Of a stretch of 64,000 bases of DNA, positions 10,295 to 30,375 are shown piece after piece. The notes under the pieces are model-generated. The model searched no databases. It worked only from the letters and a program-made list of their open reading frames with translations, and was not told the origin of the DNA. A program made the translations under genes and the position numbers. How positions within the stretch are numbered: the first letter of the stretch is position 1; every line of letters begins with the position of its first letter. Source of the stretch: Thermoanaerobaculia bacterium (GTDB lineage: Bacteria > Acidobacteriota > Thermoanaerobaculia > Multivoradales > UBA5704); assembly GCA_039918595.1 (NCBI GenBank), contig JBDSHF010000028.1, positions 5,370-69,369 on the forward strand, given 5' to 3'.

Positions 10295-10297
10295 CAG

Positions 10298-11804: not shown

Positions 11805-11813
11805 AGCTGCCTC

Positions 11814-12062: not shown

Positions 12063-12065
12063 TCG

Positions 12066-14668: not shown

Positions 14669-15280
14669 ACCATACAACTTTCACAAGCGGTGAAAAATCA
14701 CCGCAACCTGCCGCCGGATTTTTGGTTTGACTTAGAGAGCCAGGGCATCAGTGCGGCTGTCATTCACTCCCGCCTCATCGGGTGGGACGAGGAGCACGTG
14801 ACCATTCCGATCGTCTCGCGGGATCGGAAAGTTATCGGCTTCGAATATGCGACGTTTGATGAAAACGGCCGGCTGGTAACAATGCCGCAGGAAGGACCCG
14901 GACCATACCTCTATGGAGAGCCGGTCCTCAATGTCAACCCACAGGAGGTCGTTTTGACTGAGGGCGTAACGGAGTCCTTGATCCTCTCAAGCCACGGATT
15001 CAATGCGCTTTCGGCAACCGGCGACGGTCTTTCATTCCGCACCGAATGGGCGCCCGTCCTTCAGAAGGTCCCGAACGTCTTTCTCTGCTTCAAGCGCGCG
15101 AGCGAAAGCATTCAGGCGGCGCTCGGCATTCGCGAGCTGGTGCCGCACGTCCGGATCGTGACGCTTCCTCCCGAGGTCGGTCAGGGAGGCGGGCTCTACG
15201 AGTTCTTCGTGGAGCTTGAAGCGACGACGGAGGACTTTCGGCAGCTCCTCAAGCGAGCTGCCACTTCTTCCGATGCCTGA
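14669..15280 (+). CDS. Toprim-like (DnaG-primase-type) domain protein; the acidic DxD motif appears replaced.
   Basis: VVLTEGVTESLILSSHGFNALSATGDG...VFLCFKRASESIQAALGIRELVPHVRIVTLP parallels the Toprim consensus vivEGymD..l...G..n.va.lGT...vvl.fDgDeaG, but with KRA at the DxD position. Confidence 0.55.
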   Translation, partial: TIQLSQAVKNHRNLPPDFWFDLESQGISAAVIHSRLIGWDEEHVTIPIVSRDRKVIGFEYATFDENGRLVTMPQEGPGPYLYGEPVLNVNPQEVVLTEGVTESLILSSHGFNALSATGDGLSFRTEWAPVLQKVPNVFLCFKRASESIQAALGIRELVPHVRIVTLPPEVGQGGGLYEFFVELEATTEDFRQLLKRAATSSDA

Positions 15281-16652
15281 TCCTCGCCCAGAGAAGAAGC
15301 AGTTCCGGCCGGTCGTGTCCTTGACCCTGCCTACCGGTGAAATGCTCGAAACGGTATTCGACCCCGCCGCTCCGGCGACGGGGTTTATTGTGTTCGATGG
15401 CAAGAAGTGGAGAAGCGAGCGAAAGGTGGAGCTTCCGGGAGGTGTGACCCTTGTCCCGTACTCGGCAGAGAACAACCTCATCACGCATCGCGTAGTCCTG
15501 TTTCCTTCCGCGCCAGAGGAATACGGCTCCGAGGAGGAGCTGTTCGCCGACGTGCGCTCCTTCATCCATCGCTACGTGGATCTCTCCGATGGCTTCGAGG
15601 AAGTTTCCACCGCATACGTGCTCTTCTCTTGGGTCTATGACGCCTTCAACGAGGTGCCGTACCTGCGCGTGCGCGGCGACTACGGCTCGGGCAAATCGCG
15701 CTTTCTCCTCACCGTGGGGTCCCTCTGCTACAAGCCGATCTTCGCCTCGGGCGCCTCGACGGTCTCTCCGATCTTCCGCATCCTCGACGCCGTGCAAGGG
15801 ACGCTTGTCGTGGATGAGGGAGACTTCCGGGCTTCGGACGAAAAGGCCGAAATCATCAAGATCTTGAACAACGGCAACGCCAAGGGCTTCCCGGTCCTCC
15901 GAAGCGAGCAGACACCCGCGAAGGAGTTCAACCCCCGGGCCTTTCACGTCTTCGGCCCTAAGCTCGTGGCGACGCGGAACCTCTTCGATGACCGGGCGCT
16001 TGAGAGCCGTTGCCTCTCCGAGGAGATGGGTACGCGGCCTCTGCGGCCCGACATCTCCATCAACCTGCCGGAAGCCTTCGAGGAAGAGGCCCGGACTCTC
16101 CGAAACAAGCTCCTCCTCTATCGGCTGCGGACACGGGCGAGCCGCCGGCCGCTTGCCGCTGCGCCTCCGGGGCTTGAGCCGCGCCTCTCGCAGATCCTCT
16201 TGCCGCTTCTCTCTACGGCACCCTCAGAGGAGACGCGAGCGCGCCTCCTCGCGCTTGCGAAACGCTCGGGAGAGGTCATCTCGACCGAGCGGGCCATGGC
16301 GATGGAGGCCGAGGTGCTCGCCATCCTCTACGAGCTGCGGGAGGAGAAGGTCCCGCTCGCGGTTATAGAGATCGCCCAGAGATTCGCGAAGCGCCACGCC
16401 GCCGAGTATGAGTACGCGGTGACGCCCCGCTGGATCGGATCGATTTTACGGAGGAAGCTCATGTTGAACCCCCAGAAGCGCGGGGGCACCTTCACCATCC
16501 CCGCATCCGAGTACCCGAAGCTCGCCCGCCTTTTCGAGAAATACAGCGTGGGGCGCCAGGACATCGGGGACATTGGGGATGTTCAACCGGGAGAGGAGCG
16601 CGATGGCACAAGCGCGGAATCACAAGAGTCCTCGGGCTCCGTGTCCCTGTAG
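15273..16652 (+). CDS. P-loop NTPase of mobile-element primase/helicase type (D5-N/DUF3631-like).
   Basis: Walker A GDYGSGKS and Walker-B-like LVVDEGD. Start trimmed to MPDPRPEKK. Directly follows the Toprim-like gene. Confidence 0.6.
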   Translation: MPDPRPEKKQFRPVVSLTLPTGEMLETVFDPAAPATGFIVFDGKKWRSERKVELPGGVTLVPYSAENNLITHRVVLFPSAPEEYGSEEELFADVRSFIHRYVDLSDGFEEVSTAYVLFSWVYDAFNEVPYLRVRGDYGSGKSRFLLTVGSLCYKPIFASGASTVSPIFRILDAVQGTLVVDEGDFRASDEKAEIIKILNNGNAKGFPVLRSEQTPAKEFNPRAFHVFGPKLVATRNLFDDRALESRCLSEEMGTRPLRPDISINLPEAFEEEARTLRNKLLLYRLRTRASRRPLAAAPPGLEPRLSQILLPLLSTAPSEETRARLLALAKRSGEVISTERAMAMEAEVLAILYELREEKVPLAVIEIAQRFAKRHAAEYEYAVTPRWIGSILRRKLMLNPQKRGGTFTIPASEYPKLARLFEKYSVGRQDIGDIGDVQPGEERDGTSAESQESSGSVSL

Positions 16653-16748: not shown

Positions 16749-17108
16749 GTGGCTATGACATTCATACCATTACAGAACTATCTCCGTACCTACCGCAGGC
16801 GCAGTTTTCTCTCGCAGGACGAGGTTGCTTTCCTTTTGGGCGCAAAGACCGGGACACGGGTCACCCGCCATGAGGGAGCTAACCGGATTCCGAAGATGGA
16901 GACGGCGCTTGGCTACGAAGTGCTGTTCGGCGTTCCCTTGCGCGAACTGTTCGCAAGCGAGGCGCACAAGGTCGAAACCATTATCAGACAGCGTGTGCCC
17001 GAGCTGATCCGGGAGGTCGAGGAGAAGGGCGAAAGCAGAGAGAAGCTTTCCTTTCTCCGAAGCCTTTCCGAACGGCTCGCAAAGCATCATGAGAACACTT
17101 GCAATTGA
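16749..17108 (+). CDS. XRE-family HTH regulator.
   Basis: RRSFLSQDEVAFLLGAKTGTRVTRHEGANRIPKMETALGYEVLFGVPLRELF. Confidence 0.6.
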   Translation: MAMTFIPLQNYLRTYRRRSFLSQDEVAFLLGAKTGTRVTRHEGANRIPKMETALGYEVLFGVPLRELFASEAHKVETIIRQRVPELIREVEEKGESREKLSFLRSLSERLAKHHENTCN

Positions 17109-17571
17109 CCCTACTACGTCCGGCTTCGGCTTCGTGGTCCTCGAAGGAAGCGAGCGCCTGGTTGATTGGGGCCTCGGGCGACTGGAAAAGCCCGAGGATA
17201 CCCTCTTCCTGAAGCGGATCGAAAAGCTTCTTGACCGCGCAGCACCGCAGCTCCTTGTCCTTGAGGACATGGAGGACTCGCGCCGCGGCAAGAGGGCTAT
17301 CGCCTGGACGCGGCTTGCACAGATGTGCGCTGCGAAGCGCGGCATCAGGGTGGAGAGAATCGGCCGCGCGGAAGTGTCAGAGCGCTTTGCTTCCTCGGGA
17401 AAGTCGAGATGGGAGGTCGGCCTTGCGATCTCGCGCTTCTTCCCGGAGCTCGCCCCGAGCCTTCCGAAGAAACGGCGTATCTGGGAGAGCGAGGACCGGC
17501 GCATGACGATCTTCACGGCCGCCTCCTTTGCCTTGACCTTCCTGCGTCGAGCGGATCGAAGTAGAGAGTAG
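17089..17571 (+). CDS. RuvC/RNase-H-like fold protein (160 aa). Possible Holliday-junction-resolvase-like protein with partly degenerate catalytic residues.
   Basis: N-terminal LAIDPTTSGFGFVVLEG resembles the RuvC iLGIDPGsr.tGyav motif. LLVLEDMED supplies the second acidic residue. The C-terminal DxxD region is not evident. The start overlaps the upstream HTH gene by 20 nt. Confidence 0.45.
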   Translation: MRTLAIDPTTSGFGFVVLEGSERLVDWGLGRLEKPEDTLFLKRIEKLLDRAAPQLLVLEDMEDSRRGKRAIAWTRLAQMCAAKRGIRVERIGRAEVSERFASSGKSRWEVGLAISRFFPELAPSLPKKRRIWESEDRRMTIFTAASFALTFLRRADRSRE

Positions 17572-17675
17572 CTAGCCTAGCGGTAGGCAAATCAACATCA
17601 TGTCTTTACGGAGAGGACACGGCACAAAGCTCCTCGGGTAACCTACCGGGGAGCTTTGGCGTACCCGACAGATAC

Positions 17676-18890
17676 GTGCGTCTTTGGAAGACGGGAGGAG
17701 ACGGGCACGATACGCCGATGCAATCCGACAACGACATCACCTATTTTGCCCGCATTAATCACCGCAACAAGGGGACGCCTTTCGGCATCCGGAGAGCCGA
17801 CCGCCGCACCCACATGTACGTCATCGGGAAGACCGGCACCGGGAAGTCAACGCTCTTGAAAACCCTCGCACTCCACGACATAGAACACGGCGAAGGGCTT
17901 GCATTGTTCGATCCGCACGGGGATCTTGCGGAGGAGATCGTATCGCTCGTGCCTGCGAACAGACGCGCGGATCTCATCTACCTCAACGTGCCGGATCGTT
18001 CCTTCGTCTGGCACTTCAACCCCTTTGCCGGCATTCCGGAAGAGAAGCACGCTCTTGCGGTGGCGGGCATGGTCGAGGTGTTCAAGAAGCTTTGGCCGGA
18101 CGAATGGGGGCCGCGTCTGGAGCATCTCCTCCGAAACGTGGTCTTCACGCTCCTCGCGGCCGGGGGCAACTTGGGCGACGTGCCCCGCCTGCTGTCTGAC
18201 AAGGATTATAGGAACGCAGCGGTGCGCCGGGTTACGAATGGGATGGTCCGGGAGTTCTGGGAGAAGGAGTATGCCGGGTACTCGCCCGCCTTCCGGGCGG
18301 TGGTGACGGCGCCACTCCAGAACAAGCTCGGAGCGTTCCTCACGGACCCCTTGCTCCACTTGATCCTTACCGGCGAGCGCAGCTCCTTCGACCTCAGGCA
18401 GCTCATGGACGGGGGGAAGATCCTCATCGTCAACCTCGCCAAGGGAAGGATCGGGGAGGGGCCGGCAACGCTCCTGGGGTCGCTCCTGGTATCGCACCTC
18501 TCCCTGGCAGCGCTTGAGCGTGCGGACCGGCCCCAGGAGGAGCGGAGGGACTTCTACCTCTACCTGGACGAATTCCACACCTTCGCCACGCTGACGCTCG
18601 CCACCATGCTCTCTGAACTCCGGAAGTACCGGCTAAACCTCATCCTGGCCCACCAGTATCTCTCCCAGTTGGAGACGGAGATCCGGGATGCGGTCTTCGG
18701 GAACGTGGGGACATTCATCGCCTTCCGGGTGGGGGCCTTGGACGCGTCGACCGTTGCCCGGGAGCTGGCGCCGAAGTTCGAGGCGGAGGATCTCCTGTCC
18801 CTGCCGAACTTCTCTGTTTACCTGCGGCTCATGATCCGGGGGGAGCCGTCCAAGCCGTTTAGTGCTGTCAGTTGTGCACCACTGTCTTGA
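17676..18890 (+). CDS. P-loop ATPase of the FtsK/HerA/VirD4 (T4SS coupling-protein-like, DUF87/TraD) superfamily; no TM segment.
   Basis: HMYVIGKTGTGKSTLLKTLALHDIEHGEGLALFDPHGD Walker A. FYLYLDEFHTFAT Walker B. RKYRLNLILAHQYLSQL. Paralog of the ATPase domain of the ORF at 25642. Confidence 0.8.
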   Translation: MRLWKTGGDGHDTPMQSDNDITYFARINHRNKGTPFGIRRADRRTHMYVIGKTGTGKSTLLKTLALHDIEHGEGLALFDPHGDLAEEIVSLVPANRRADLIYLNVPDRSFVWHFNPFAGIPEEKHALAVAGMVEVFKKLWPDEWGPRLEHLLRNVVFTLLAAGGNLGDVPRLLSDKDYRNAAVRRVTNGMVREFWEKEYAGYSPAFRAVVTAPLQNKLGAFLTDPLLHLILTGERSSFDLRQLMDGGKILIVNLAKGRIGEGPATLLGSLLVSHLSLAALERADRPQEERRDFYLYLDEFHTFATLTLATMLSELRKYRLNLILAHQYLSQLETEIRDAVFGNVGTFIAFRVGALDASTVARELAPKFEAEDLLSLPNFSVYLRLMIRGEPSKPFSAVSCAPLS

Positions 18891-18919
18891 CGCATCTGAT
18901 AAAGGCATGCGATAGTGAT

Positions 18920-19879
18920 GCCATGGCTAAACAAATCGCGGCCCGCTCTCAGGTGACGAGTCCTCACAAGCGTGATTGGCCCTTGGCTATTATTGTATTG
19001 TTCTTTGTCTTTATTTCAGGTTTCACTTTGTCAGCTCAGCCCGCAAGGAAGACTCTGTACACGAGCCAAGATGCCAAAATCGACGAACTGAAGTGTTCAT
19101 CCAAAGACAAGATTTTTCTACCTATTCTTCCGAAAAAGTCAATTTACGGAAAGGTGATCGAACCTGAAGATGTCCTACGCTCGGCGCCTCCTTCGAATCT
19201 TGCAAGTGATGCGGATGAATCTAGGAATTTAGTAGGATATTCGGGACCCTATTACAACGTGGAGGAGCTGACTGGAAATGTCGCCGTGCTCGAAAGGACT
19301 TTATATAACTGGCCGACTAATAATTGGCATGTAACAGGGTTGCTTCGAAATCAAACATGCATGGACATTCGAGTCTCGTCCATAACCGCCCACCTTATCG
19401 GGCCAAGCGGTAAGGAAGTGCGCATTGAAACTGCTACCGTTCCTATTAGTGATTTGAGACCGGGTGAGCCGGCCCCTTTTGATCTAAGTTCTCCAATCCC
19501 AAGAGAGAACGTTGAGCGCGTGGAATGGCAGATTGGATACGCAACAACGACAGAATCGCCCGTTCGGACTTTCTCATTTCTGGTATATCAGTCACGCCAG
19601 ATCACAAGTTCCTCGTACCTGCTTTTCGGCAGTATCCAGAACCTAGGGAGTTCCAGTGCGAGGGGAACTCACATTGTGGCGGCCTGGCTAGATAGTAGCG
19701 GCAGGGTTCGCTATGTAGCATCACCTCTGATTCAACTGGCGACCGGTCCATTGAGTCGAAGAAATAAAATAAATTTGGTGGGCAACGATTTTGAAGATTT
19801 CGTCTTTTCCGCTAATGATCCGCTGCTAGCATCAACGTTGAGTCAGGCAAACGTCGCAATCTGGGGTGTTGCAAATTGA
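18920..19879 (+). CDS. Membrane-anchored (N-terminal TM) periplasmic protein, low GC.
   Basis: WPLAIIVLFFVFISGFTL TM anchor. Its stop overlaps the start of the giant ORF (TTGA). Confidence 0.55.
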   Translation, partial: AMAKQIAARSQVTSPHKRDWPLAIIVLFFVFISGFTLSAQPARKTLYTSQDAKIDELKCSSKDKIFLPILPKKSIYGKVIEPEDVLRSAPPSNLASDADESRNLVGYSGPYYNVEELTGNVAVLERTLYNWPTNNWHVTGLLRNQTCMDIRVSSITAHLIGPSGKEVRIETATVPISDLRPGEPAPFDLSSPIPRENVERVEWQIGYATTTESPVRTFSFLVYQSRQITSSSYLLFGSIQNLGSSSARGTHIVAAWLDSSGRVRYVASPLIQLATGPLSRRNKINLVGNDFEDFVFSANDPLLASTLSQANVAIWGVAN

Positions 19880-22800
19880 AATATTCAGCCTGGGCCTTAT
19901 CAGTGATCGTCCTAATTCTCTCGGGAGAAGGACAAGCGGCAGCGCATGACTTTGGCAGTATACCCTATGACGATGTGGTCTACGCGGCCCAAGTCTATAA
20001 TCAATGCAGGGATACTCTCCCGACTGACAAATTGGTTGCTTACATGCTCGCGCCGACATGGCGAGAATTAACCAATGGCAATACCAATCTAACGCCATCC
20101 CCTATGACATTGGGCAGAGGGGATAACGATTTGGATCTATATCCAGATGGTCAGTCCGGCGCAACTGCTCCGCACCGTCGCGCTTTTTGGCACCCGGGTA
20201 TTGGTCTCTGGCAACTCGATGATATCGGTCTTGGAAAAGACATTAGCACAGAGAAATTCAACTCAAGAGACGCGGCTCAGGTTGCAGCTACCATAATCTC
20301 AACTCGATATTGTAAATCGCCAACAGCTGCGTATATATATGGAGGTATCTGGATTGCTTGTGGGGCGGATGGGAGTCTTTGTCAGGATATTGTCAACCAA
20401 CTCTACAACCCTAATGGCCCTCCAGCGTATACAGTTGGTCGCGACAATAGTGTTGGTCGGTACGGTGGTTCGCAGTTGCATACGTGTAAACTAGCGGGCG
20501 ACACTAGGTATTTCGATTGCCTATATGTTAAGCCTGCCAACCCAGATGGAACACGAGCCAACGCCGAGGGTACTATATCAAGTTGGATTTACCAGCCATT
20601 AGAGGGTCTTTATCCCCCCAATACACCGTCTCCGCTAACAATGCCATTTTATGTCTATCGAGAGGATGCAACTGGAGGGGGATTCGAGTGGCGATATTGG
20701 CTAGCTGCTGATACAGGCTTCGGAAAAGATTATGCTGCTAGACGAACCTATGGCGCCAACTCTCGGGCAGGTCTCCATTGGGTTTCAGATGCGTCAACCA
20801 GCTTAGCTCTCTGTGATGTTACCCTTACACGCGGTGCCTGTGGAGGTATTCCCCAGGCACCTTCGATATCCAACATAGCACAGCTATCGTACGACGGGTC
20901 GCCACTTTCAGTCGGCGCTATTACACAAGCTGGAACCGTTATACTCCGAGGTACACTTGCTGGTTCTCAGGGTCAACAAGTACGAATTGAGCTAGAGGTT
21001 CGGAGAATCTCTGACCCGTTCTTAGGTGAACCGAATTACCTTGGAAACTACGTCACCAGTGGGAGCGTAAGCAAGTGTGTCACGGGACTGCAAGACGCCA
21101 AATATCATTGGCAGGCACGAGTGAGGAGCGATAGTGGACAGTTCAGTCAATGGCTTCAGTTCGGGGGAAACTCTGAAGCCAGTCCTGATTTCGAGGTACA
21201 GGCTAATAGATGTGCTATTTGCACTGCGTCTGGCGCATCTGCTGTGGTCACAAAGTATGGCCGTATTGGAATATCCTGTGGCGTACCCCTGGCTGTAGAA
21301 CTTGCAGCGTCTGTCAACAATGGTATTACCCTGCTTAATGGTGTAAGTCTGACGGCATCGGTGAGTGGTTCGGAAACCGGCACTATAAATTACACGTTTT
21401 ATTGTAATCGTCCCGATGGAGGAATTGATGTTAGATCTGGATGGATTGCCAAGTACGATGGGATTTCGGCGAATCCGAAAACAGCATATGACGTATGTGA
21501 CTATGTTGGGCCGGGTATTTATACTGCAAAGGTGATCGCTGAGCGTGGATCAAGCGCAGCTGAATCACGGACACTCATCACCGTTTCGGCACCTTCAACG
21601 CAAACTCCTTCGGTTACAACGAGTGGCTCGGCAAATGTGACCCAAAGTAGTGCGACTCTCAGTTTATCTGTTAATCCAAACGGGTCTGATACTTCAGCCT
21701 GGTTTGATTGGGGGACGAGCACCTCCTTCTGCTGTAACACGAGTCAGCAGACAGTCGCGGCTAGTTCGGGAGCGTCACTGCTTAGTATGACCGTAGGCGC
21801 CCTTCAATGCGACACAACCTACTACTTCCGAGCCCACGCACAAAGTGTAGGCGGAGAAGCCACAGGAAGCACCTTGTCATTCCGAACGGGTGCATGTGGC
21901 AACGGCCCCCAAACCGTTCAACTTGTGCCTGATCCAGGCTTCGAGCAAGGAAACAATGCGTGGTGGGTAGCGAGCCCAGCGTTCTATATCGATCATGCTC
22001 CCACCTTCCCGAATCCGCGCAATGGAAGTTACTACGCTTTCCTTTCCACGTCCAACGGCTCGGCGGGCAACAATTTGCAGGGCGGCGTGATATCGCCCCA
22101 AGTCACCATTCCTTCAAACGCAAGCGGAGCTGAACTGCGCTTCTGGTATAGCGTTTCGACACAGGAGACGAGTACATCAATCTTTGATACCCTCAAGGCT
22201 TACCTAGTTAAGCCGGGGAATCAAGCGACACTCTTTGCAACCATCTCAAACTTGGACAATTCTGGCACAACGTATAGAGAGAAGGTTGTCGGCATTCCCT
22301 CCTCATTTTTCGGCGGCCCGGTGCAGATCTTTTTCTCTGGCGCAACAGACGGTAGCTTGCCTACCGTCTTCCGCGTAGACGATGTGACGCTTTCTGCCTT
22401 CATCCCTGCGACGGCCGGTTCGCCTGTCGTTAGCACGGGGTCTGTTGACCAAATTACCTCGTCTAGCGGACGGCTCAGCATGACTGTCAACCCCAACGGT
22501 GCCGACACTCAGGTGTGGTTTGATATAGAAACGAACAATCCGCCGAACTCTGAGACAGAGCACGTAGCTATAGGAACCGGGCAGCAGGCCGAGGGCGTTA
22601 GCATTAGTGTATTCGGCTTGCGATGCGACACGACCTACTACTATCGGGCTGATGCCGTCAATTCGTACGGATCACAGCTAGGCTCTGTGAGTTCTTTTAG
22701 AACCAGTACTTGTCCCGTTCAAGCCCCCTCAGTATCAACCACTGTTGCTGACAGTATAACGTCCACCTCTGCGCGTTTGGTTGGGAGCGTCAATCCAAAC

Positions 22801-24789
22801 GGCTTCTCAACAACGGTTTGGTTCGCTTGGGGAACCGATACGACGCTCGGAAATTCTACGCCTAGCCAGAACGTCGGCAGTGGTAATTCTTCAGTGAGCT
22901 TCGCGGCTACACTCAATAACCTTCAGTGCGGCACTACCTACTACTACCGTGCCAAGGGGCAGAACAGCGGCGGGCAGACATCCGGTGCGCTCTACAACGT
23001 AACAACTTCCCCTTGCAGCCAAATACCCGTTATAACGATAACGGCAAGCGATCCGACTGCGACTGAAAATCCCATGACTACGGGGGAGTTTCTCATCCAG
23101 CGAACAGGAGATCTTTCTAGTGCGTTATCGGTGGCATACACCGTGGGAGGAACCGCCATCGTTGGGGTAGATCACACGCTTGGAGGCGGGAGCGTGACCA
23201 TCCCCTCTGGATCAGCCTCGACTACTTTGACCGTCTTTCCGATCGACGATTCACTGGTCGAACCAGATGAGACCGTCGTTGTGACGCTTCAGCCGCAGTC
23301 CCAATATACAGTTGGTACCCCAAGCGGTGCCACTGTTACAATTACGAGTGATGATACGGGATGTGCCTTAAGTGTCATAAGGCCGCAAGGTGGAGAGGTG
23401 TGGACAAAAGGATCACCTCATACCGTTCAGTGGAGTGCGAACTCTGATTGCGTGGACTTTGCCTTTATTCTATACAGAAATGGTAACTTTGATGGCTACC
23501 TGACAGGTTCTCTGTCCGGGAGCCAATTTAGCTGGACACCTCCGGCGTGGCTCGTACCAAGTCCCGGGCTGCAGATTGATGTTGTAGGATTCAACGCTGA
23601 TGGCACTGGTGTTTCGGCGCGTTCAAACAACTTTACGCTTATCAACCCTGCGGTCCTTCCCGCAGTCATATTCCAGGACACTGTAGAGACTAACGATGAG
23701 TTCAACTACTACTCCGAAGGATGGGGAGTGACAAATTTCACCTCGCACAGCCCCACGCATTCGCGCGCGGATAGTCCTGCTTTCTACGGCAACAACACGA
23801 ACAGCTCACTTATAACACCTAAAATCGATGTTAGTAGCCGCACCTCCCTCTCTCTCAGCTTCTGGCATCGCTTTAGTCTTGCGGACTTCGACTTCGTGAA
23901 CGTCTGGGTTAAGACCGATCAAGGAGATTGGATCTTCTTGCAGGGCTTTACCGGAATCCAATCTGACTGGCGACAGGTCACAATTAACCTGAACGCTTTC
24001 CTTGGCCAACCGTCTGTTCAGGTCGCTTTTCAGATAGTATCTGATGATGCTCTGACTGCCGATGGCTGGTATATCGACGACATCGTATTGAGTGGGGCGA
24101 GTGACACTAATAAAATTTTCTCTAATGGTTTTGAGTCCGGTGATCTTTCGGCATGGTTGGTGGCGCCGCCGAGCGACGGAAGCATCGTTTCTGTTTTGGA
24201 GCAGGGTGTCCCAGGGCAACCCGGAAAGGATATTTGGACAACGAGCAACTATTCATTTGCGCCGGGCGGCAACACGCCGGGAGGTGGGTTGGACAACGAA
24301 GAGCTTGTAGTAGGAGGATGGGGCGACAATTACTACAGCCTCCTTGAGTTCAATCTCGCAGGGCTTCCAAGTCACGCATCCTCGGCAGTGCTCAAGCTCT
24401 TTTGCTACCGGACTCGTGCTACCGAAACGATTGGCATGTATGTCGAGCGTATAACCCAGATATGGGATTGGCGTACCCAAGGCACCGGCCGAGATAGGGA
24501 GAGGTTATGGTGGGCAGACCAACCGCAGTCACTCAATTGGATAGGCTTGCCGGTCACGAAGCCGACGGTAGGGCAGTGGTACTCAATCGACATCACGGAT
24601 CTCTATAACGCATGGCAGAACGGATCTGTGCCAAACTACGGCATCAAGCTCACACCGGTTGATAATGGTAACGAGTGGAGCGAGTTTTACAGCGCAAACT
24701 ACTCTGATCCGGCCTTCCGGCCTCGGCTCGTAATTCGGCCGGATCAATCTACCGTTAAACGTTCTCCTCTATCTAGGAAGCCACGGTAG
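19876..24789 (+). CDS. Giant secreted multidomain surface protein (1637 aa): signal peptide, three or more Fn3-like repeats, a Calx-beta domain, a Kre9/KNH-like Ser/Thr-rich domain, two MAM/ConA-like domains and a C-terminal DNRLRE-like domain.
   Basis: TTG start coupled to the upstream gene. Signal peptide MKYSAWALSVIVLILSGEGQAAA. Repeated VNPNG.DT..WF.WGT...TTYY(F/Y)RA units. Calx-beta segment ITASDPTATENPMTTGEFLIQRTG...DETVVVTLQP. Two ...(V/I)DD(V/I)VL motifs typical of MAM domains. C-terminal DNEELVVGGWGDNYYSLLEFNLAGLP. GC is lower than the host. Confidence 0.8.
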   Translation: MKYSAWALSVIVLILSGEGQAAAHDFGSIPYDDVVYAAQVYNQCRDTLPTDKLVAYMLAPTWRELTNGNTNLTPSPMTLGRGDNDLDLYPDGQSGATAPHRRAFWHPGIGLWQLDDIGLGKDISTEKFNSRDAAQVAATIISTRYCKSPTAAYIYGGIWIACGADGSLCQDIVNQLYNPNGPPAYTVGRDNSVGRYGGSQLHTCKLAGDTRYFDCLYVKPANPDGTRANAEGTISSWIYQPLEGLYPPNTPSPLTMPFYVYREDATGGGFEWRYWLAADTGFGKDYAARRTYGANSRAGLHWVSDASTSLALCDVTLTRGACGGIPQAPSISNIAQLSYDGSPLSVGAITQAGTVILRGTLAGSQGQQVRIELEVRRISDPFLGEPNYLGNYVTSGSVSKCVTGLQDAKYHWQARVRSDSGQFSQWLQFGGNSEASPDFEVQANRCAICTASGASAVVTKYGRIGISCGVPLAVELAASVNNGITLLNGVSLTASVSGSETGTINYTFYCNRPDGGIDVRSGWIAKYDGISANPKTAYDVCDYVGPGIYTAKVIAERGSSAAESRTLITVSAPSTQTPSVTTSGSANVTQSSATLSLSVNPNGSDTSAWFDWGTSTSFCCNTSQQTVAASSGASLLSMTVGALQCDTTYYFRAHAQSVGGEATGSTLSFRTGACGNGPQTVQLVPDPGFEQGNNAWWVASPAFYIDHAPTFPNPRNGSYYAFLSTSNGSAGNNLQGGVISPQVTIPSNASGAELRFWYSVSTQETSTSIFDTLKAYLVKPGNQATLFATISNLDNSGTTYREKVVGIPSSFFGGPVQIFFSGATDGSLPTVFRVDDVTLSAFIPATAGSPVVSTGSVDQITSSSGRLSMTVNPNGADTQVWFDIETNNPPNSETEHVAIGTGQQAEGVSISVFGLRCDTTYYYRADAVNSYGSQLGSVSSFRTSTCPVQAPSVSTTVADSITSTSARLVGSVNPNGFSTTVWFAWGTDTTLGNSTPSQNVGSGNSSVSFAATLNNLQCGTTYYYRAKGQNSGGQTSGALYNVTTSPCSQIPVITITASDPTATENPMTTGEFLIQRTGDLSSALSVAYTVGGTAIVGVDHTLGGGSVTIPSGSASTTLTVFPIDDSLVEPDETVVVTLQPQSQYTVGTPSGATVTITSDDTGCALSVIRPQGGEVWTKGSPHTVQWSANSDCVDFAFILYRNGNFDGYLTGSLSGSQFSWTPPAWLVPSPGLQIDVVGFNADGTGVSARSNNFTLINPAVLPAVIFQDTVETNDEFNYYSEGWGVTNFTSHSPTHSRADSPAFYGNNTNSSLITPKIDVSSRTSLSLSFWHRFSLADFDFVNVWVKTDQGDWIFLQGFTGIQSDWRQVTINLNAFLGQPSVQVAFQIVSDDALTADGWYIDDIVLSGASDTNKIFSNGFESGDLSAWLVAPPSDGSIVSVLEQGVPGQPGKDIWTTSNYSFAPGGNTPGGGLDNEELVVGGWGDNYYSLLEFNLAGLPSHASSAVLKLFCYRTRATETIGMYVERITQIWDWRTQGTGRDRERLWWADQPQSLNWIGLPVTKPTVGQWYSIDITDLYNAWQNGSVPNYGIKLTPVDNGNEWSEFYSANYSDPAFRPRLVIRPDQSTVKRSPLSRKPR

Positions 24790-24792
24790 GAT

Positions 24793-25635
24793 GTGCTACC
24801 TGGATTGACTGATAAGGAACGGCAAGAGTATGTTCTAAAGTCAAATCTCGATGTCGCAGAATGTAAATTCCTCTATTTGAACTCTCTCCCGGGTCTTGCT
24901 AGTCTCATTCGTACCAACCGAAGTACGGAGGATCCCCGCATGCCCCGACACTCTGACGGAGTAGTGCTGTCCAACTGGCATACCCTCTTCGAGGACTTCT
25001 CGACCTCGACCCAGGACTTCTATGCCGCTGTTGAAGCCGCGATTGCAGACCGGAACCTCCCAGACATCAAACTCTCCCGCGTCTTCTTCAGTGAGGGCGG
25101 CATCGGTTCCGCCAAGCGCGAATACCTCCGCATCGAGCGCCAGCGGATCGTCTTCGACATCTGCTCCGCGCCATACGGCAAGGGGCACTTCTTCTCCTGG
25201 TGGCTTGCCAAGATCCCAGCGAAGTATGGTCTTTTCATCGTTCTCGGTATTGCCCTCGGATGTCTTCCACTCTGTCTCATCTTCCTTGGCATCCTCTTGA
25301 AAATCTTCGAGGGCTCCCTCTTCGGCATGGTCGTCCTTCCCTTCATCTCCCTCCTCGTCATCCCGGCGATCTTCCTTCTCCTCGGTCTCGGCGTCGAGCG
25401 AGGGCTCATCGGCGACGAGGAATGGGTCCTCTCCATCCCCTGGGTCGGATACCTGTACTACGTAGTCTTCAACCCTGTCTCATACTACCGCCTCGACACC
25501 GCCATGATGTTCCGCGACTCGATACGCTCGGCCGTGAACGAGGTCTTGAACGACCTGCGGGAAGAGAAGGGCCTGCGGCTCCTCGGGGACGAGGAACTCC
25601 GGCCCGACGCCGACGAGGGAGAGGCCACGGCGTAG
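24793..25635 (+). CDS. Integral membrane protein (cytoplasmic N-terminal domain plus 2-3 TM helices).
   Basis: Hydrophobic helices LFIVLGIALGCLPLCLIFLGILL and MVVLPFISLLVIPAIFLLLGLGV. Lies 4 nt after the giant ORF. Confidence 0.6.
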   Translation: MLPGLTDKERQEYVLKSNLDVAECKFLYLNSLPGLASLIRTNRSTEDPRMPRHSDGVVLSNWHTLFEDFSTSTQDFYAAVEAAIADRNLPDIKLSRVFFSEGGIGSAKREYLRIERQRIVFDICSAPYGKGHFFSWWLAKIPAKYGLFIVLGIALGCLPLCLIFLGILLKIFEGSLFGMVVLPFISLLVIPAIFLLLGLGVERGLIGDEEWVLSIPWVGYLYYVVFNPVSYYRLDTAMMFRDSIRSAVNEVLNDLREEKGLRLLGDEELRPDADEGEATA

Positions 25636-25641
25636 CGGGGT

Positions 25642-28600
25642 ATGGCGAGCCGGGTTGAGGAGCGCACCCACCATTTCTTCCGGTGGGAACGGCGGGGCCG
25701 CGGACGGCGGAGCTTCCTGTCTCCCGTCTCGCTTGAGCCGCCCTTCACTCCCTTTTGGTTCGTGAAACATGCCGCGCCCGCCCTCGATGACGGCAGGCAT
25801 CACACCTTCTTGTCAGCCTTCCTCGAACGGTTCTCTGGTAAGCGGGAGGCGCCGCCACCTGAGCCCGAGATCGAAGAGCCGGAGGCGGAACCCGGAGACG
25901 AGGGGGAGCCTGTCGAGCTACGGGTCCTCCTGCCGCAGGAGCTTTCCGTCACGGCGGCGCTCTCCGAAGGCTTCCTCAAGAGCCTTGCGGCCGTCCATAC
26001 GCCGCTCTCGCTGGAACTGGTCGGCATAGGCGGAGAGGTGGCGGTTTCCCTCACCAGCCGCAGGACGGCGGTGCCGATCCTCTCCTCCCAACTGCGGGCC
26101 TTCTTCCCGGAGGTACGCCTGGAGGAGGAAGAAGATCTCCTCCTCACTGCCTGGGAGTCGGGAGTGGAGGGTGTCTTCGGCGCCGTCGAGCTTGGCCTGT
26201 CCCGCGAGTTCATGCTACCCCTCGGCCGTCCGCGAAACTTCACGCCCGATCCCTTGACCGCGATCGTGGGAGCGCTTGCGGAGACTGCGCCCGGCGAGGT
26301 TGTCATCGTCCAGGTGCTCTTTCAGGGAGTGCGGTCGCCGTGGGCGGAGAACATCGTGCGGTCGGTGACCACACCCTCCGGCGAGCCCTTCTTCGCTGAC
26401 GCTCCCGAGGTCACCAAGCTTGCCCGCGAGAAAGTATCCGCACCGCTCTTCGCCGTTGCCGTTCGCGTCGTGGCGCGGGGAGCAACCGAGGAGCGGCTGT
26501 GGACGCTTCTCTCGGGTAGCCTTGGCGCGCTCGTGGGCGCAACGAGAGGTGACAACGAACTTGTGCCGCTCGGGACGGATGACAGTACCGAGATCTTGGG
26601 AGACGTGCTCCTGCGCAGGACCCACCGGAGCGGCTTTCTCCTCTCGCTTCCCGAGCTGCTTCCCCTGGTTCACCTTCCGTCGCCCTCGATCCCCGGCATC
26701 GCCCGGGACACCGGCCGCACCAAGCTCCTCCCCGAGGAGGCACAGGAAGGCGGGCTCTTCCTCGGGTACAACGTCCATGCGGGAAGGGAGCGCGAGGCGC
26801 GGCTCTCGACGGACGCGCGCCTCCGCCACGTGCATGTCGTGGGGGCTTCGGGCACCGGCAAGTCAACGCTTCTGGTGTCCATGATCCTCCAGGACATTGC
26901 CGCCGGGCACGGCGTGGGCGTCATCGACCCGCACGGCGATCTCATCGACCACGTGCTCGGCGGGATTCCTGAAAACCGAGCGGCGGACGTAATCCTCTTT
27001 GACCCGGCCGACCCGGAGCATGTCGTCGGCTGGAACATACTCTCCGCGCACTCCGAAGCAGAGAAAGACATGCTCTCCTCGGACCTCGTTGCGGTCTTCC
27101 GCAGGCTTTCGACCTCCTGGGGCGACCAGATGACGGCGGTCCTTGCGGGCGCGATTCTCGCCTTCCTGGAGTCAGAGCGGGGCGGCACGCTCCTCGATCT
27201 GCGGCGGTTCCTCGTGGACCAGGGCTTCCGGCGGGAGTTTCTCGCCACCGTCCGCGACGAGTATGCCCGAGACTTCTGGACGAGAGAGTTTCCGGTGCTC
27301 AAGGGCTCGCCTCAGGCGTCGATCGTGACCCGGCTCGATACGCTTCTCCGGGGCAAGCTCGTGCGCGGGGTGGTGACGGCCAGAGACAAGCCCCTGGACT
27401 TCCGGGGAGTGGTGGACGACCGGCGGATCTTCCTGGCGAAGCTCTCGCAGGGTGCCATCGGCGAGGAGAACGCTGCGCTCCTGGGGTCGCTTCTCGTCTC
27501 GAAGATCCACCAAGTATGCCTTCTGCGGCAGGATCAGGCCGAGGGTTCGCGCCGGCCGTTCTTCCTCTACCTCGACGAGTTCCACAACCTCGCGACGCCC
27601 TCCATGGCGACGCTCTTCTCCGGGGCGCGCAAGTACCGCCTCGGGGTGACCGTCGCGCATCAGGATCTCTACCAGCTCCACGCCTCCGTTCCCGAAGTCG
27701 AACGGGCCGTCCTCGGGAACGCATACACCCGGATCTGCTTCCGCCTCGGCGACGAGGACGCCCGGACCTTATCTGCGGGCTTCTCCTTCTTCACGGCAGA
27801 CGACCTCGGGAACCTCGACACCGGAAGAGCGATCTGCCGGGTGGGCAGGAAGGAGCACGACTTCAACCTCTCCGTCGTGCCGATGGAGCATGGAGACCCT
27901 GAGGCGCATGAAGCGAGGCGCCGGGATGTCCGGGCGCGGTCGCTTGCGAGGTGGGGCGCGCCGCGCTCTGCGGAGCCGCCGGCGGCTCCCGCACCTCCCG
28001 AGAGGCCACGAGCGGAAGCACCGCCACGAGTCGAAGTGCCACTGGCGCAGCCGCAACCCAAACGAGAGACAGCCCCGCCGCCTTCGGCTCCGCCCCCTCT
28101 ACCCGCACAGGTGCAAGCTCCCGAGCCACCTCCGGTCGAACCGCGCCGCCCGGGCAAAGGCGGGCCGGAGCACACGTATCTCCAGGAACTCATCAAGCGG
28201 TGGGGAGAGGAGAAGGGCTTCCGGGCAGTGGTCGAGGAGCAGATTGCGGGCGGCAGGGAAAGCATAGACATCGCCCTCTACCGGGGCGACCTCAAGATCG
28301 CCTGCGAGGTCTCGGTCACGACGCCTCTTGAATATGAGGTCGGGAACGTGGAGAAGTGCCTTGCGGCCGGATTCGGGACGGTGGCGGTCGTGTCTCTCAA
28401 GAAGGCCCGACTCGCGAAGCTCGGAAAGCTCCTCGACGAAGCCATTCCTTCCGAGAGCCGGGCCAAGGTCCACCTATTCACGACGGAGGAGTTGCTCTCA
28501 TGGCTTGAGGGGCAGCCGGTCCACGAGGAGGTGAAAACTGTCAGGGGATGGAAGGTCAAGGTCAAGTACCGCGATCCGGGAGATGACCGCATGAAGCGCG

Positions 28601-28650
28601 TCGCCGAGATCCTGGCCCGGAGTACGAGCGGGCTAGAGAAGGATGGGTAG
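25642..28650 (+). CDS. Large FtsK/HerA/VirD4-like P-loop ATPase (1002 aa) with an N-terminal domain of unknown function, a Pro-rich linker and a C-terminal PD-(D/E)xK/Mrr-Hjc-like nuclease-fold domain.
   Basis: HVHVVGASGTGKSTLLVSMILQDIAAGHGVGVIDPHGD Walker A. FFLYLDEFHNLAT Walker B. RKYRLGVTVAHQDLYQL. Linker PPAAPAPPERPRAEAPP...PPPLPAQVQAPEPPPVEP. C-terminal GEEKGFRAVVEEQIAGGRESIDIALYRGDLKIACEVSVTT fits an E...D...E(V)S restriction-endonuclease-like core. Confidence 0.8.
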   Translation: MASRVEERTHHFFRWERRGRGRRSFLSPVSLEPPFTPFWFVKHAAPALDDGRHHTFLSAFLERFSGKREAPPPEPEIEEPEAEPGDEGEPVELRVLLPQELSVTAALSEGFLKSLAAVHTPLSLELVGIGGEVAVSLTSRRTAVPILSSQLRAFFPEVRLEEEEDLLLTAWESGVEGVFGAVELGLSREFMLPLGRPRNFTPDPLTAIVGALAETAPGEVVIVQVLFQGVRSPWAENIVRSVTTPSGEPFFADAPEVTKLAREKVSAPLFAVAVRVVARGATEERLWTLLSGSLGALVGATRGDNELVPLGTDDSTEILGDVLLRRTHRSGFLLSLPELLPLVHLPSPSIPGIARDTGRTKLLPEEAQEGGLFLGYNVHAGREREARLSTDARLRHVHVVGASGTGKSTLLVSMILQDIAAGHGVGVIDPHGDLIDHVLGGIPENRAADVILFDPADPEHVVGWNILSAHSEAEKDMLSSDLVAVFRRLSTSWGDQMTAVLAGAILAFLESERGGTLLDLRRFLVDQGFRREFLATVRDEYARDFWTREFPVLKGSPQASIVTRLDTLLRGKLVRGVVTARDKPLDFRGVVDDRRIFLAKLSQGAIGEENAALLGSLLVSKIHQVCLLRQDQAEGSRRPFFLYLDEFHNLATPSMATLFSGARKYRLGVTVAHQDLYQLHASVPEVERAVLGNAYTRICFRLGDEDARTLSAGFSFFTADDLGNLDTGRAICRVGRKEHDFNLSVVPMEHGDPEAHEARRRDVRARSLARWGAPRSAEPPAAPAPPERPRAEAPPRVEVPLAQPQPKRETAPPPSAPPPLPAQVQAPEPPPVEPRRPGKGGPEHTYLQELIKRWGEEKGFRAVVEEQIAGGRESIDIALYRGDLKIACEVSVTTPLEYEVGNVEKCLAAGFGTVAVVSLKKARLAKLGKLLDEAIPSESRAKVHLFTTEELLSWLEGQPVHEEVKTVRGWKVKVKYRDPGDDRMKRVAEILARSTSGLEKDG

Positions 28651-28791
28651 GTAGGTACTCTCCGGCGCCGCATCCCGCCACAGGGGCACCTTGTGGCGTC
28701 TTTCCGGCTACCATCGGCGCGCGTACGGTGGGCGAAGAGTGTTCTTCACACCTTCAACCCTCCGCGAGAGCGGATCTCTTTGGAGACAAGG

Positions 28792-30375
28792 ATGATGCGT
28801 CCCCGAACCCCTAACAGCGAAGGCAAACGGGTGGGGCTCTGGATCAGAGTCTCGACCGAAGACCAAGCACGGGGCGAGAGTCCCGAGCACCACGAAGCGC
28901 GCGCCCGGATGTATGCCGAGAGCAAGGACTGGACCGTCATAACGGTCTACCACCTCGAAGGCGTGTCAGGGAAGTCGGTCATGCAGCACCCCGAGGCACA
29001 GCGGATGCTTGCCGATGTCAGGCAAGGGTCGATCTCCGGCCTCATCTTCTCCAAGCTCGGCCGCCTAGCCCGGAACACGACCGAGCTACTGGAGTTTGCC
29101 GCGATCTTCGAGCAGCACGGTGCCGACCTCATTTCCCTCGGCGAGTCGATCGACACCTCCACTCCCGCCGGCCGTCTCTTCTACACCTTGATCGCCGCCA
29201 TGGCGACCTGGGAGCGAGAGGAGATCGCCTCTCGGGTCGCGGCTTCCGTGCCTATCCGGGCCAAGCTCGGGAAGAAGCTCGGCGGAGCCGCCCCCTACGG
29301 CTACGCCTGGAAGGACGGCAAGCTCGCCCCTGAAGAGAAAGAGGCGCCTGTCCGGAAGCTCATGTATGAACTCTTCCGACAGACCAAGCGCGTGCGGACG
29401 GTTGCCCGGCTCTTGAACGAGCAAGGATACCGGACCCGAAACGGAAGCCTCTTCACCCATGTCACGGTGCGGCGCCTCATCCTCGACCCCACCGCTAAGG
29501 GGGTACGCCGCGCCAACTACACCAAGAGCCTGGGTGACGGGAAGAAGTGGAAGCTCAAGCCCGAAAGCGAATGGGTAGAGCTGCCAGTCCCCCCGATCGT
29601 GGACGAAGCGGTCTGGGAATCGTGCGCCTCGATCCTCCGGGAGAGGGCGAACGGCCGCAAGCCCGGTCCCCGGACAGTCCACCTCTTCACTGGCGTTGTC
29701 TTCTGCCATTGTGGGCGGAAGATGTACGTGCCCTCGAACAACCCTAAGTGGATCTGCCAGGGGTGCCACAACAAGATCCCCATTCCGGACCTTGAGGCCG
29801 TCTTCGAAGAACGGCTTCAGGCGCTCGTCTTCTCCCCTGAGCAGTTTGACGTCCACCTTCGGGAAACAGAGGCGACGATCGAGGCAAAGCGGGAGGAGCT
29901 GGCAGTGCTACTGCGGGAAGAAGACTCCGTAAAGGCTGAGTCCGACAAGCTCTACCGCCTCTACCTCGAAGGGGGCCTCCCGGTCCCGGCCTTTCGGGAA
30001 AGGAACGATCCTCTGGAGGAGCGGAAAGAGCAACTGCGGCTCCAGATTCCCCGGCTCAAGGGAGAGATAGACTTCCTCGTGATACGGCAGCTCGGAAGTA
30101 CAGAGACTCTTGTCGAGGCCCAGACCCTCTACGAGAAGTGGGCGATCCTCTCCTTCGGGATCAAGCGGGAGATCGTCGAAACCATCGTGGAGCGGATCGA
30201 CGTCGGGGTGGGCGATGTCGAGATCACCCTCTCTTGCGACATACCCGAGCCCCCCGACTTCCCCCTTTCCCCTGAACTCATGGCAGAAGGGGAACGAATC
30301 TCCAGGGATTCATCGCGGCGAGCAGGGAAAACCGGGCCGGGAAGACCAGCCGGGCGCGGGCCCGCACGACGCTGA
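28792..30375 (+). CDS. Large serine recombinase (integrase) at the element's right end. The last ~25 codons and the stop lie in comM-derived host DNA.
   Basis: [12 protein letters not shown] catalytic serine motif, recombinase domain and zinc ribbon [21 protein letters not shown]. Start trimmed to MMRPRT. The ORF runs across the junction at ~30298. Confidence 0.85.

Follow-up and report, generated by a model that had tools for sequence, protein, structure and literature searches.

The 64,000-nucleotide stretch of DNA analysed here (the window) comes from a Thermoanaerobaculia bacterium (contig JBDSHF010000028.1 of assembly GCA_039918595.1). It contains the right-hand end of an integrative element that was inserted into the host gene comM by a large serine recombinase, and the last genes of this element include an ATPase module derived from the type IV secretion system (T4SS). 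The module consists of a long ATPase fused to a nuclease, a small membrane protein and a second, short ATPase, and it fails the sequence tests for VirB4, a full T4SS, MADS, HerA and FtsK-type TraB. With a probability that we estimate at about one half, it serves the transfer of the element itself, as a minimal set of proteins that is derived from a T4SS and processes and translocates DNA; this figure takes in self-transfer as well as helper routes other than a resident T4SS. The family represented here is a widespread, undescribed group of integrating mobile elements with a conserved two-motor core; in the literature searched, the family was not described and the domain DUF8128 was not mentioned.

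A preliminary description of the sequence had placed seven open reading frames (ORFs) on the forward strand at this end of the element, and all of them, including the recombinase at 28693-30375, were found. The same genes are present at 99.6-100% identity in an independent public assembly (L005; related loci are referred to below by such handles). These genes, with the domains of the long ATPase and the host fragment at the element junction, are as follows (TM, transmembrane; T4CP, type IV coupling protein).

17089..17571, forward strand: RuvC-related RNase-H-fold protein, 160 aa (family profile versus 1hjr; Pfam RuvC in relatives)
17676..18890, forward strand: short T4CP-like P-loop ATPase, 404 aa (likely start at 17718, giving 390 aa)
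18872..19879, forward strand: membrane-anchored envelope protein with FxLYD domain, 335 aa (alternative start at 18923)
19876..24789, forward strand: secreted multidomain giant protein, 1637 aa (signal peptide; Pfam and NCBIfam domains)
24793..25635, forward strand: small inner-membrane protein, 280-aa ORF (likely start at 24940, giving 231 aa)
25642..28650, forward strand: long ATPase, 1002 aa (three domains plus a linker)
25642..26796, forward strand: N-terminal domain of the long ATPase, residues 1-385, Pfam DUF8128 (predicted VirB4-N-terminal-domain-like fold)
26797..27921, forward strand: T4CP-like motor domain of the long ATPase, residues ~386-760 (Pfam and PDB profile search)
27922..28134, forward strand: Pro/Ala-rich low-complexity linker of the long ATPase, residues ~761-831 (read from the translation)
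28135..28650, forward strand: C-terminal PD-(D/E)xK domain of the long ATPase, residues 832-1002 (fold and residue conservation)
28693..30375, forward strand: large serine recombinase, 560-aa ORF (likely start at 28795, giving 526 aa); terminal integrase
30278..31351, reverse strand: 5' fragment of host comM, 357 aa, cut at ...AAMNP; right-hand element junction

The two ATPases and their membrane partner

The long ATPase is a hybrid protein: a VirB4-type docking domain precedes a motor of the VirD4 type, and a Pro-rich linker leads from the motor to a nuclease. Residues 1-385 were modelled with AlphaFold2 (AF2) from a 78-sequence alignment, and the model had a predicted local distance difference test score (pLDDT) of 86 and a predicted template modelling score (pTM) of 0.83. 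When it was compared with the full PDB by Foldseek, the 14 best matches were all chains of TrwK (E = 7e-6 to 3e-4, probability 1.00), with a modest global TM-score of ~0.42. Since the model contains no P-loop domain, the match to TrwK is a match to the VirB4 N-terminal domain, and the model thus assigns a VirB4-N-terminal-domain-like fold to residues 1-385. The preliminary description had recognised no VirB4 in this region. That statement holds for the sequence, as the VirB4 model TIGR00929 (VirB4_CagE) gave E = 4.6e-4 and 18.5 bits against a cut-off of 643, but it does not hold for the predicted fold.

The motor domain of the long ATPase matched Pfam TrwB_AAD_bind with 35.0 bits (cut-off 20.5), and T4SS-DNA_transf and TraG-D_C were matched in addition. 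In the search against PDB profiles, TrwB (1e9r, E = 3.6e-8) and DotL (E = 5.8e-5) were found, and a profile made from 80 family sequences of the motor gave E = 2e-11 for TrwB versus 1.7 for TrwK. The Walker A (GASGTGKST) and Walker B (LYLDEF) motifs are intact, and G401, G404, G406, K407, S408, T409, D645 and E646 are invariant.

The PD-(D/E)xK-like domain that had been proposed at the C-terminus is borne out by both fold and residue conservation. The model of residues 832-1002 (pLDDT 84) has a restriction-endonuclease-like alpha/beta core. Across 80 sequences from different phyla, H844, E865 and D876 are invariant, and E889, E899, N902 and K905 are conserved at 97-99%. Weak Pfam matches to CoiA_nuc, SfsA, PDDEXK_9 and REase-ARP recurred among the C-terminal domains. 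In some family members a further, DNA-binding domain of the HTH_17/MerR type was seen in this part of the protein: HTH_17 was matched by 7 and MerR by 3 of the 80 scanned C-terminal segments, each segment starting just before the nuclease. HTH_17 is also carried by the long-ATPase homologue of L095 (69-3485) and by P0112, where it ranks first among the domains. The extra domain hints at sequence-specific recognition of DNA.

The N-terminal-domain family comprises 1021 cluster representatives at 50% identity, 357 of them at E <= 1e-30. Nearly all members are ~1000 aa long and have this domain at the N-terminus, and therefore the architecture is fixed. In public annotation, they appear only as 'type IV secretion system DNA-binding domain-containing protein', 'HerA-like ATPase' or DUF8128.

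The gene immediately upstream encodes the small membrane protein, which is predicted to have a cytoplasmic N-terminal part and then two TM helices (147-165 and 179-197). We fetched and compared 93 related loci, the majority of which come from metagenome-assembled genomes (MAGs). ORFs in these loci were called crudely, by a greedy choice of the longest ORF. Conservation of gene order elsewhere, which the preliminary description had suggested as a check, was found for this pair: in 83 of the 93 loci, spanning about ten phyla, the gene just before that of the long ATPase encodes a homologue of the membrane protein. The gap between the two genes is within ~50 nt in ~70 of 74 pairs, and an overlap of 1-4 nt is often observed. 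In the window, the gap is 6 nt, and it is real. The membrane protein and the long ATPase are a translationally coupled pair, and by analogy the position of the membrane protein may be likened to that of VirB3.

The proposal that the two ATPases are paralogous proved correct. The short ATPase aligns to residues 393-734 of the long one with 36% identity over 348 aa, and both exceed the cut-off of Pfam TrwB_AAD_bind. The short ATPase scored 38.9 bits in this search (cut-off 20.5) and also matched T4SS-DNA_transf and TraG-D_C; its family profile gave E = 1.3e-13 for TrwB and 0.023 for TrwK. Neither ATPase reached an equivalog-level NCBIfam cut-off, with scores far below, and TM segments were predicted in neither. 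The short ATPase is encoded no more than 10 kb upstream of the long ATPase in 29 of the 93 loci, and in 7 loci it is only 13-206 bp from the membrane-protein gene. On a Sulfitobacter plasmid, a short ATPase gene is followed by transposase genes, and the rest of the module is not there. PHROG 5156, a profile of 824 positions with unknown function, matched both ATPases (E = 7e-47 and 8e-43). This match takes in part of the VirB4-like N-terminal domain, so relatives exist among the sequences filed as phage.

Distribution, insertion in comM and variable parts of the element

Full-length relatives of the 1002-aa protein number in the thousands, and relatives were confirmed in the genomes of at least 567 GTDB species (one genome per species was scanned). 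Among the matches listed are relatives from Acidobacteriota, Planctomycetota, Verrucomicrobiota, Bacteroidota, Gemmatimonadota, Binatia, Desulfobacterota and Chloroflexota, as well as from a few candidate-phyla MAGs, which may stem from binning errors. Mucilaginibacter and Lacibacter are cultured carriers in the Bacteroidota, among them M. phenanthrenivorans BJC16-A38 (L067), Mucilaginibacter sp. OK098 (L079) and L. luteus TTM-7 (L070). Several genomes have two or three copies of the module, such as the MAG that contains L034, L071 and L084 and the 8.4-Mb contig that contains P0017 and P0087.

The two ATPases and the membrane protein had been regarded as cargo in the preliminary description. 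This view was abandoned, as they are conserved across phyla and tied to differing types of integrase. The membrane protein and the long and short ATPases are the constant part, while the integrase type and the neighbours vary, and therefore the three proteins belong to the backbone of the element. Nor do the seven genes make up one unit, as had been supposed; the place of the 335-aa and 1637-aa genes is empty in seven relatives and is occupied by unrelated genes in L006. RadC, ArdC, ParB_N, a DnaG-type primase, Replic_Relax, helix-turn-helix (HTH) regulators and integrases recur as neighbours in the related loci. ArdC, RadC, ParB_N, primase and Replic_Relax are typical of conjugative or mobilisable elements. 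Capsid, terminase, relaxase and T4SS channel genes were not found among the 150 nearest upstream neighbours or the recurrent families.

No full-length homologue of the long ATPase was detected in 72,556 plasmids (PLSDB) or in 50,697 phage records (INPHARED), where the matches covered only the motor domain with <=35% identity. A phage or plasmid origin was rejected on this result. Among 2.9 million IMG/VR contigs three full-length homologues were found, one of which (L088) is a comM-inserted island.

The terminal recombinase (28693-30375) matched Pfam Resolvase (100.8 bits) and Recombinase (68.2 bits) and has a Zn-ribbon domain. Forty loci have a large serine recombinase, which shares the strand of the long ATPase in 38 of them and follows it within 600 nt in 24. 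The identities of recombinase and ATPase to the window copies rise and fall together (Spearman 0.56, p = 1.5e-4, n = 40). The pair is linked to tyrosine recombinases in 14 loci, and in Bacteroidota relatives these take the place of the serine recombinase.

The comM fragment of the window is 49% identical to residues 1-349 of the full-length ComM from L037 (13193-14722). A 5' fragment of comM adjoins the element in 15 loci and is always broken near ...MNP|CPCG, and in 6 more loci with the opposite orientation the element lies beside the 3', C-terminal fragment. With the recombinase at the end and the split comM abutting it, the element is one of the serine-recombinase comM elements. Elements of the module family, and apparently others too, break comM at the same codons in either orientation. 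The 3' (C-terminal) fragment of comM was not found anywhere in the window, which leaves two explanations, namely loss of this fragment or an island of more than 30 kb. The window contains no tRNA genes.

Between the short ATPase and the membrane-protein gene there is a slot that ranges from 13 bp to 8.7 kb across the relatives and is empty (13-206 bp) in seven of them. In the closest relative, L006, whose long ATPase is 92% identical, the slot contains two unrelated minus-strand genes. In L001 it contains an M23/LytM peptidase, a kinase-TPR protein, an ECF sigma factor and a DUF6973 protein; M23/LytM is a domain class found in VirB1-like hydrolases (review PMC12857230). RadC occupies it in some Bacteroidota loci (L078, L080), and in Verrucomicrobiota it holds Replic_Relax, primase, ArdC and/or a polytopic protein of ~800 aa. 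The latter is a conserved protein for which 4-6 TM segments are predicted and Pfam gave no match; it was seen in the slot of L036, L037, L054, L056, L069 and L075, where it lies ~3 kb before the long ATPase, and may belong to a channel.

In the window, the slot is occupied by the 335-aa and 1637-aa envelope proteins. The 335-aa protein matched the NCBIfam model FxLYD_dom with 27.3 bits (cut-off 23) and has one N-terminal TM segment (residues 37-55). The giant protein begins with a signal peptide and a Cys-rich conserved N-terminal domain of ~320 aa, which is followed by Fn3/Ig-like repeats and MAM/CBM-like domains; towards the C-terminus there are Calx-beta, a Kre9/KNH Ig-like domain and a terminal DNRLRE/CBM96 domain. 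The N-terminal domain has only 10 homologues in a collection of 5.8 billion proteins, and no match to it was obtained in Pfam at E <= 10 or in the PDB profile search. A lysozyme/transglycosylase-like fold would be a guess from the motifs TWWE and GIGxWQLDD, and these searches gave no match in its favour.

We examined six contexts of this N-terminal domain (the window, L002, L081, L095, L096/97 and L098). A homologue of the 335-aa protein precedes it in all six, and the pair adjoins the membrane-protein/long-ATPase module in five; the sixth, on the short contig L098, has little flanking sequence. The C-terminal domains of the giant change from context to context (Fn3, Flg_new_2, FG-GAP, Kre9/KNH). 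The variable slot and the low GC content at third codon positions (GC3) had pointed to random cargo or a recent insertion, and this explanation was dropped, as the rare N-terminal domain adjoins the module in 5/6 contexts. Because the pair recurs beside the module in this way, it is an optional but dedicated accessory in a subset of the Acidobacteriota elements. A conserved N-terminal handle with swappable binding domains would be the pattern expected of a factor for surface contact or adhesion. Across the window, L002 (4220-9252) and L081 (1753-9152), the GC3 of the 335-aa and giant genes is 0.43-0.69 versus 0.74-0.88 for the backbone, and despite the low GC3 the divergence of the pair at the protein level is similar to that of the backbone in these three loci.

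The GC content of the window is 55-63% up to ~30.4 kb, versus 64-72% in the host DNA to the right, and it dips to 48-54% across 19-25 kb. Low GC had been ascribed to all three envelope genes. This is correct for the 335-aa and 1637-aa genes, whose codon usage looks foreign, with GC3 values of 0.47 and 0.51 versus 0.73-0.82 in the backbone, but not for the 280-aa gene, whose GC3 (0.74) is backbone-like; its lower overall GC results from its hydrophobic composition. The claim of tight packing, with gaps of 30 nt or less, was likewise true only in part, that is, with the longest ORFs and not with the starts supported by homologues. With starts backed by homologues and another gene caller, the gap from the 160-aa to the 404-aa gene becomes ~146 nt. 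The gap from the 1637-aa to the 280-aa gene is ~150 nt with the supported start near 24940, and that from the long ATPase to the recombinase is 42-144 nt with supported starts. The TTGA overlap of the 335-aa and 1637-aa genes was retained, as homologues align from residue 23 and the signal peptide begins at the TTG. Promoter-like and terminator-like counts in the region were not above those of shuffled controls, and these counts neither support nor exclude a single operon.

Upstream of the short ATPase, the element contains the RuvC-like gene and the following features.

16749..17108, forward strand: HTH regulator, 119 aa (Pfam HTH_31 E = 1.4e-3, below the cut-off)
14540..16652, forward strand: 246-aa primase-like protein and 478-aa P-loop protein (GDYGSGKS), the presumed replication module
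12710..14326, reverse strand: second large serine recombinase, 538 aa, inside the island (Pfam Resolvase, Recombinase, Zn_ribbon_recom)

The RuvC fold that had been suggested for the 160-aa protein was confirmed with a profile built from this protein and ten relatives, which matched E. coli RuvC (1hjr) at E = 4.6e-10; Pfam RuvC was found in 6 of the 11 family members. In the alignment, D7 and E59 stand at the positions of RuvC D7 and E66, and in the window copy the C-terminal Asp pair of RuvC, read by eye, seems to be replaced by Thr and Ser. Within the family the acidic positions are variable, and on these residues the catalytic competence of the protein is doubtful. The last 20 nt of the HTH gene are also the first 20 of the RuvC-like gene. 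In L006, L026 and L055, too, an HTH homologue immediately precedes the RuvC-like gene, and the two genes accompany the module in ~11 loci that represent several phyla. The GC-rich DNA of the window typically shows long antisense ORFs, and the 248-aa ORF opposite the RuvC-like gene (16770-17516, reverse strand) is such an artefact; the corresponding artefact in the related loci was corrected by homology.

The 246-aa protein matched phrog_47, a DNA primase, at E = 1.1e-6. The family of the 478-aa protein (15216-16652, forward strand) co-occurs with the module in L006, L023 and L026 with 45-92% identity. This protein has no match in Pfam, PHROG or NCBIfam and is probably a replication or initiator helicase. 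Its central region is very strongly conserved, and the protein is 45-53% identical among Acidobacteriota, Planctomycetota and Desulfobacterota.

The internal recombinase (12710-14326) is only ~21-23% identical to the terminal-type recombinases of the related loci. Homologues of it were found in L006 (47%, at the same relative position) and L023 (43%), and a nested element, a resolvase and a second integrase are candidates for its role. The ECF sigma gene and an 82-aa gene to its left are conserved in L006, which indicates that the island runs leftwards beyond position 1 of the window. The low-GC left part (1-12600) encodes TPR proteins (3098-4426 and 6562-7590), a GNAT acetyltransferase (4440-5069, reverse strand), an ArdC-N-like protein (10977-11804, reverse strand) and an ECF-type sigma factor (12066-12551, reverse strand). 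Kinase-TPR genes recur in related Acidobacteriota elements; L001 and L002 pair them with an ECF sigma factor, L096 with an FHA-domain protein.

Possible function of the module and rival explanations

The preliminary description had offered three options, namely a minimal DNA-transfer apparatus, an adhesion or contact module, and a HerA-type nuclease defence island. The first remains the best supported. In such an apparatus, the element would be excised by the recombinase, and its DNA would then be cut or nicked by the nuclease domain. The fused nuclease may play the role that is played elsewhere by relaxases of the MOBC class, which are PD-(D/E)xK enzymes (review PMC12857230). By analogy with VirB3 and VirB4, the membrane protein would dock the long ATPase at the inner membrane through the VirB4-like N-terminal domain. 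In canonical systems, the N-terminal domain of VirB4 binds VirB3 and touches the membrane, virB3 adjoins virB4 and co-evolves with it, and small two-TM proteins have been proposed as anchors of coupling proteins that lack TM segments, as for TraI and TraJ of pIP501 (review PMC12857230). One or both of the motors, as hexamers, would then pump the DNA out. Streptomyces TraB moves DNA without other T4SS parts and with only small membrane partners (review PMC12857230). Passage through the envelope and contact with the recipient may be provided by the lineage-specific slot proteins or by helper machinery; in the window, the 335-aa and 1637-aa proteins are a possible adhesin or envelope-remodelling pair. 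Transfer could be autonomous or could use a helper, either a resident T4SS or the competence machinery of the recipient as in Thermus transjugation.

Several points weigh against transfer as the function. The link to VirB4 comes from one AF2 model and one solved protein, TrwK, at the TM-score of ~0.42 given above; in family profile comparisons, the N-terminal domain had no sequence match to TrwK, and the membrane protein had none to TrwM/VirB3. No known MOB relaxase was detected in the Pfam/NCBIfam scans of the window genes, and Replic_Relax is present in some relatives only. The hosts are diderms, and VirB6, VirB8, VirB9/10, a pilin or an outer-membrane component were not conserved with the module in the window scans or among the recurrent neighbours. 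Conjugation genes are usually common on plasmids, and none of the 72,556 plasmids carried the full-length long ATPase, though this collection is poor in the phyla concerned. An ATPase-nuclease fusion is also a common design in defence. Architecture, conservation and folds are shown here, and every functional step is inferred.

A more specific form of the transfer reading is that the membrane protein, the fusion ATPase and the short motor are an unrecognised, minimal and self-sufficient DNA-export apparatus. It would be a class beside the known mating-pair-formation types, in which the PD-(D/E)xK domain replaces the relaxase and the envelope proteins give the contact between cells. We put this form forward only tentatively.

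The first rival explanation is that the core serves defence or exclusion. The membrane-docked ATPase-nuclease would sense and degrade incoming DNA of a phage, plasmid or integrative and conjugative element (ICE), and the giant protein and its partner would act in surface exclusion or receptor masking. An ATPase with a PD-(D/E)xK nuclease whose catalytic residues are conserved is frequent in defence systems, the module lies at the element end beside the integrase, which is a frequent site of defence genes, and a conserved channel or relaxase was not found. The best PADLOC match of the two ATPases was mad8 (E = 1.8e-20 and 1.8e-16). On the other hand, Mad6, Mad7 and Mad8 are all mandatory in the published detection model of MADS, and the profiles of that study go back to HHpred alignments with PDB entries (bioRxiv 10.1101/2023.03.30.534895). 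The mad8 profile, being built in this way, is inferred to be a generic ATPase model, and mad6 and mad7 were not found; MADS was therefore rejected.

The HerA label of the preliminary description did not survive, because the PADLOC HerA models (E = 5e-5 to 6e-3) cover only 26-67 residues of the Walker A stretch, and the Pfam DUF87 matches are similarly limited to residues 44-83 and 394-433. Membership in the HerA defence systems was rejected on the same ground. With no more than a generic mad8/HerA ATPase match in PADLOC, the earlier statement that this is not a named defence system stands. Defence genes are usually the variable part of an element, whereas here the pair is constant, the integrase type and neighbours vary, and the identity of the ATPase to the window copy tracks that of the recombinase. 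To our knowledge, a VirB4-N-terminal-domain-like fold together with a second, motor-only paralogue has no precedent in defence systems. We regard a role in defence as unlikely, though it is the strongest of the rivals.

According to the second rival, the element is mobilisable: the ATPases would be coupling proteins, the nuclease would be the relaxase, the channel would be that of a resident conjugative element, and the envelope proteins would be adaptive cargo. Both ATPases pass the Pfam thresholds of the T4CP domains, mating-pair-formation genes were not found, and Replic_Relax adjoins the short ATPase in some relatives. Integrative mobilisable elements that encode their own coupling protein have reportedly been described. 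Known coupling proteins, however, have neither a VirB4-type N-terminal domain nor a dedicated VirB3-like partner, many of the host phyla have few known T4SSs, and the envelope pair is linked specifically to the module rather than scattered. This explanation appears somewhat less likely than defence.

The third rival, which is very improbable, is that the two motors package the genome of a virus-like or vesicle-borne element or segregate it, much as FtsK/HerA-type ATPases package the DNA of phages that contain a membrane. In its favour, phrog_5156 matches both ATPases, a 'terminase large subunit' PHROG gives a weak match, three full-length homologues lie on IMG/VR contigs and distant relatives of the motor occur in large Bacillus phages. 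Against it, no conserved capsid, portal or tail genes were found among the 150 nearest neighbours or the recurrent families, the 2.9 million viral contigs gave only those three full-length matches, with L088 being a comM island, and the 50,697 phage records gave none.

The movement of genes in the dominant soil and freshwater phyla Acidobacteriota, Verrucomicrobiota, Planctomycetota and Gemmatimonadota is largely unknown, because the standard conjugation markers rarely register there. If the module is a transfer machine, it would provide a marker by which many mobile elements of a hidden class could be recognised, and also a compact three-protein model for the evolution of T4SS ATPases, in which VirB4-type docking is combined with a VirD4-type motor. 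If export is self-sufficient, the module would drive horizontal transfer in Acidobacteriota, Verrucomicrobiota, Planctomycetota, Gemmatimonadota and Bacteroidota. A function in defence would make it a new and very widespread defence system. The disruption of comM ties these elements to the conflict between mobile elements and natural transformation, and the cultured carriers Mucilaginibacter and Lacibacter make the question directly testable.

Comparison with known systems

The preliminary description had stated that this is not a canonical T4SS, and we agree, as VirB4 by sequence, a relaxase and channel parts were not found. VirB2, B5, B6, B8, B9, B10 and B11 and an HUH relaxase are among the components not found here. 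MADS and the HerA-nuclease systems share with the module a P-loop ATPase of the same broad superfamily, whereas here there is no methyltransferase context and the genes behave as the backbone of an element.

In ICETh1 (TdtA) of Thermus thermophilus and in the archaeal Ced and Ted systems of DNA import, a motor of the HerA/FtsK/VirB4 class moves DNA without a full T4SS. The transjugation system of ICETh1 and Ced/Ted resemble the module in having similar motor and nuclease functions and small membrane proteins, but the architectures differ. For CedD, only a weak NCBIfam match far below the cut-off (E = 5.6e-6) was obtained, which gives no meaningful membership.

The Streptomyces elements with TraB and Spd proteins (actinomycete integrative and conjugative elements, AICEs) are similar in that an integrase, a replication module, a motor of a single family and small membrane proteins are combined without a full T4SS. 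TraB is FtsK-like, whereas the motors here are T4CP-like; Pfam FtsK_SpoIIIE gave E = 4e-3 and 17 bits against a cut-off of 24, over the Walker A stretch only. The elements described here also differ from AICEs in their diderm hosts, the two paralogous motors, the VirB4-like N-terminal domain, the nuclease fusion and the serine recombinase that inserts them into comM. With the MOBC relaxases (TraX of pAD1 and MobC of CloDF13), the C-terminal domain shares a PD-(D/E)xK-type fold, and the catalytic residues are conserved here. This likeness is at the level of the fold, and the domain is fused to a motor instead of being a separate relaxase.

The closest comparison is with TrwM, TrwK and TrwB of the R388 T4SS. 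The gene of a small two-TM protein lies immediately upstream of, and is coupled to, that of a large ATPase, as with VirB3 and VirB4; the gap is 2 nt between virB3 and virB4 of R388 and 6 nt here, and it is small throughout the family. The N-terminal domain of the long ATPase is modelled with the fold of the VirB4 N-terminal domain, and both motors are in the sequence neighbourhood of VirD4/TrwB. The long ATPase differs from VirB4 in that its motor is T4CP-like by sequence, with TrwB matched at 2e-11 and TrwK at 1.7, and both ATPases differ from VirD4 in lacking its N-terminal TM helices. VirB3 is only about half as large as the membrane protein, which has an additional cytoplasmic part at its N-terminus, and the PD-(D/E)xK nuclease fused at the C-terminus of the long ATPase is a further difference from the T4SS. 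The module shares fold and synteny with VirB3/VirB4 and domain-level homology with VirD4.

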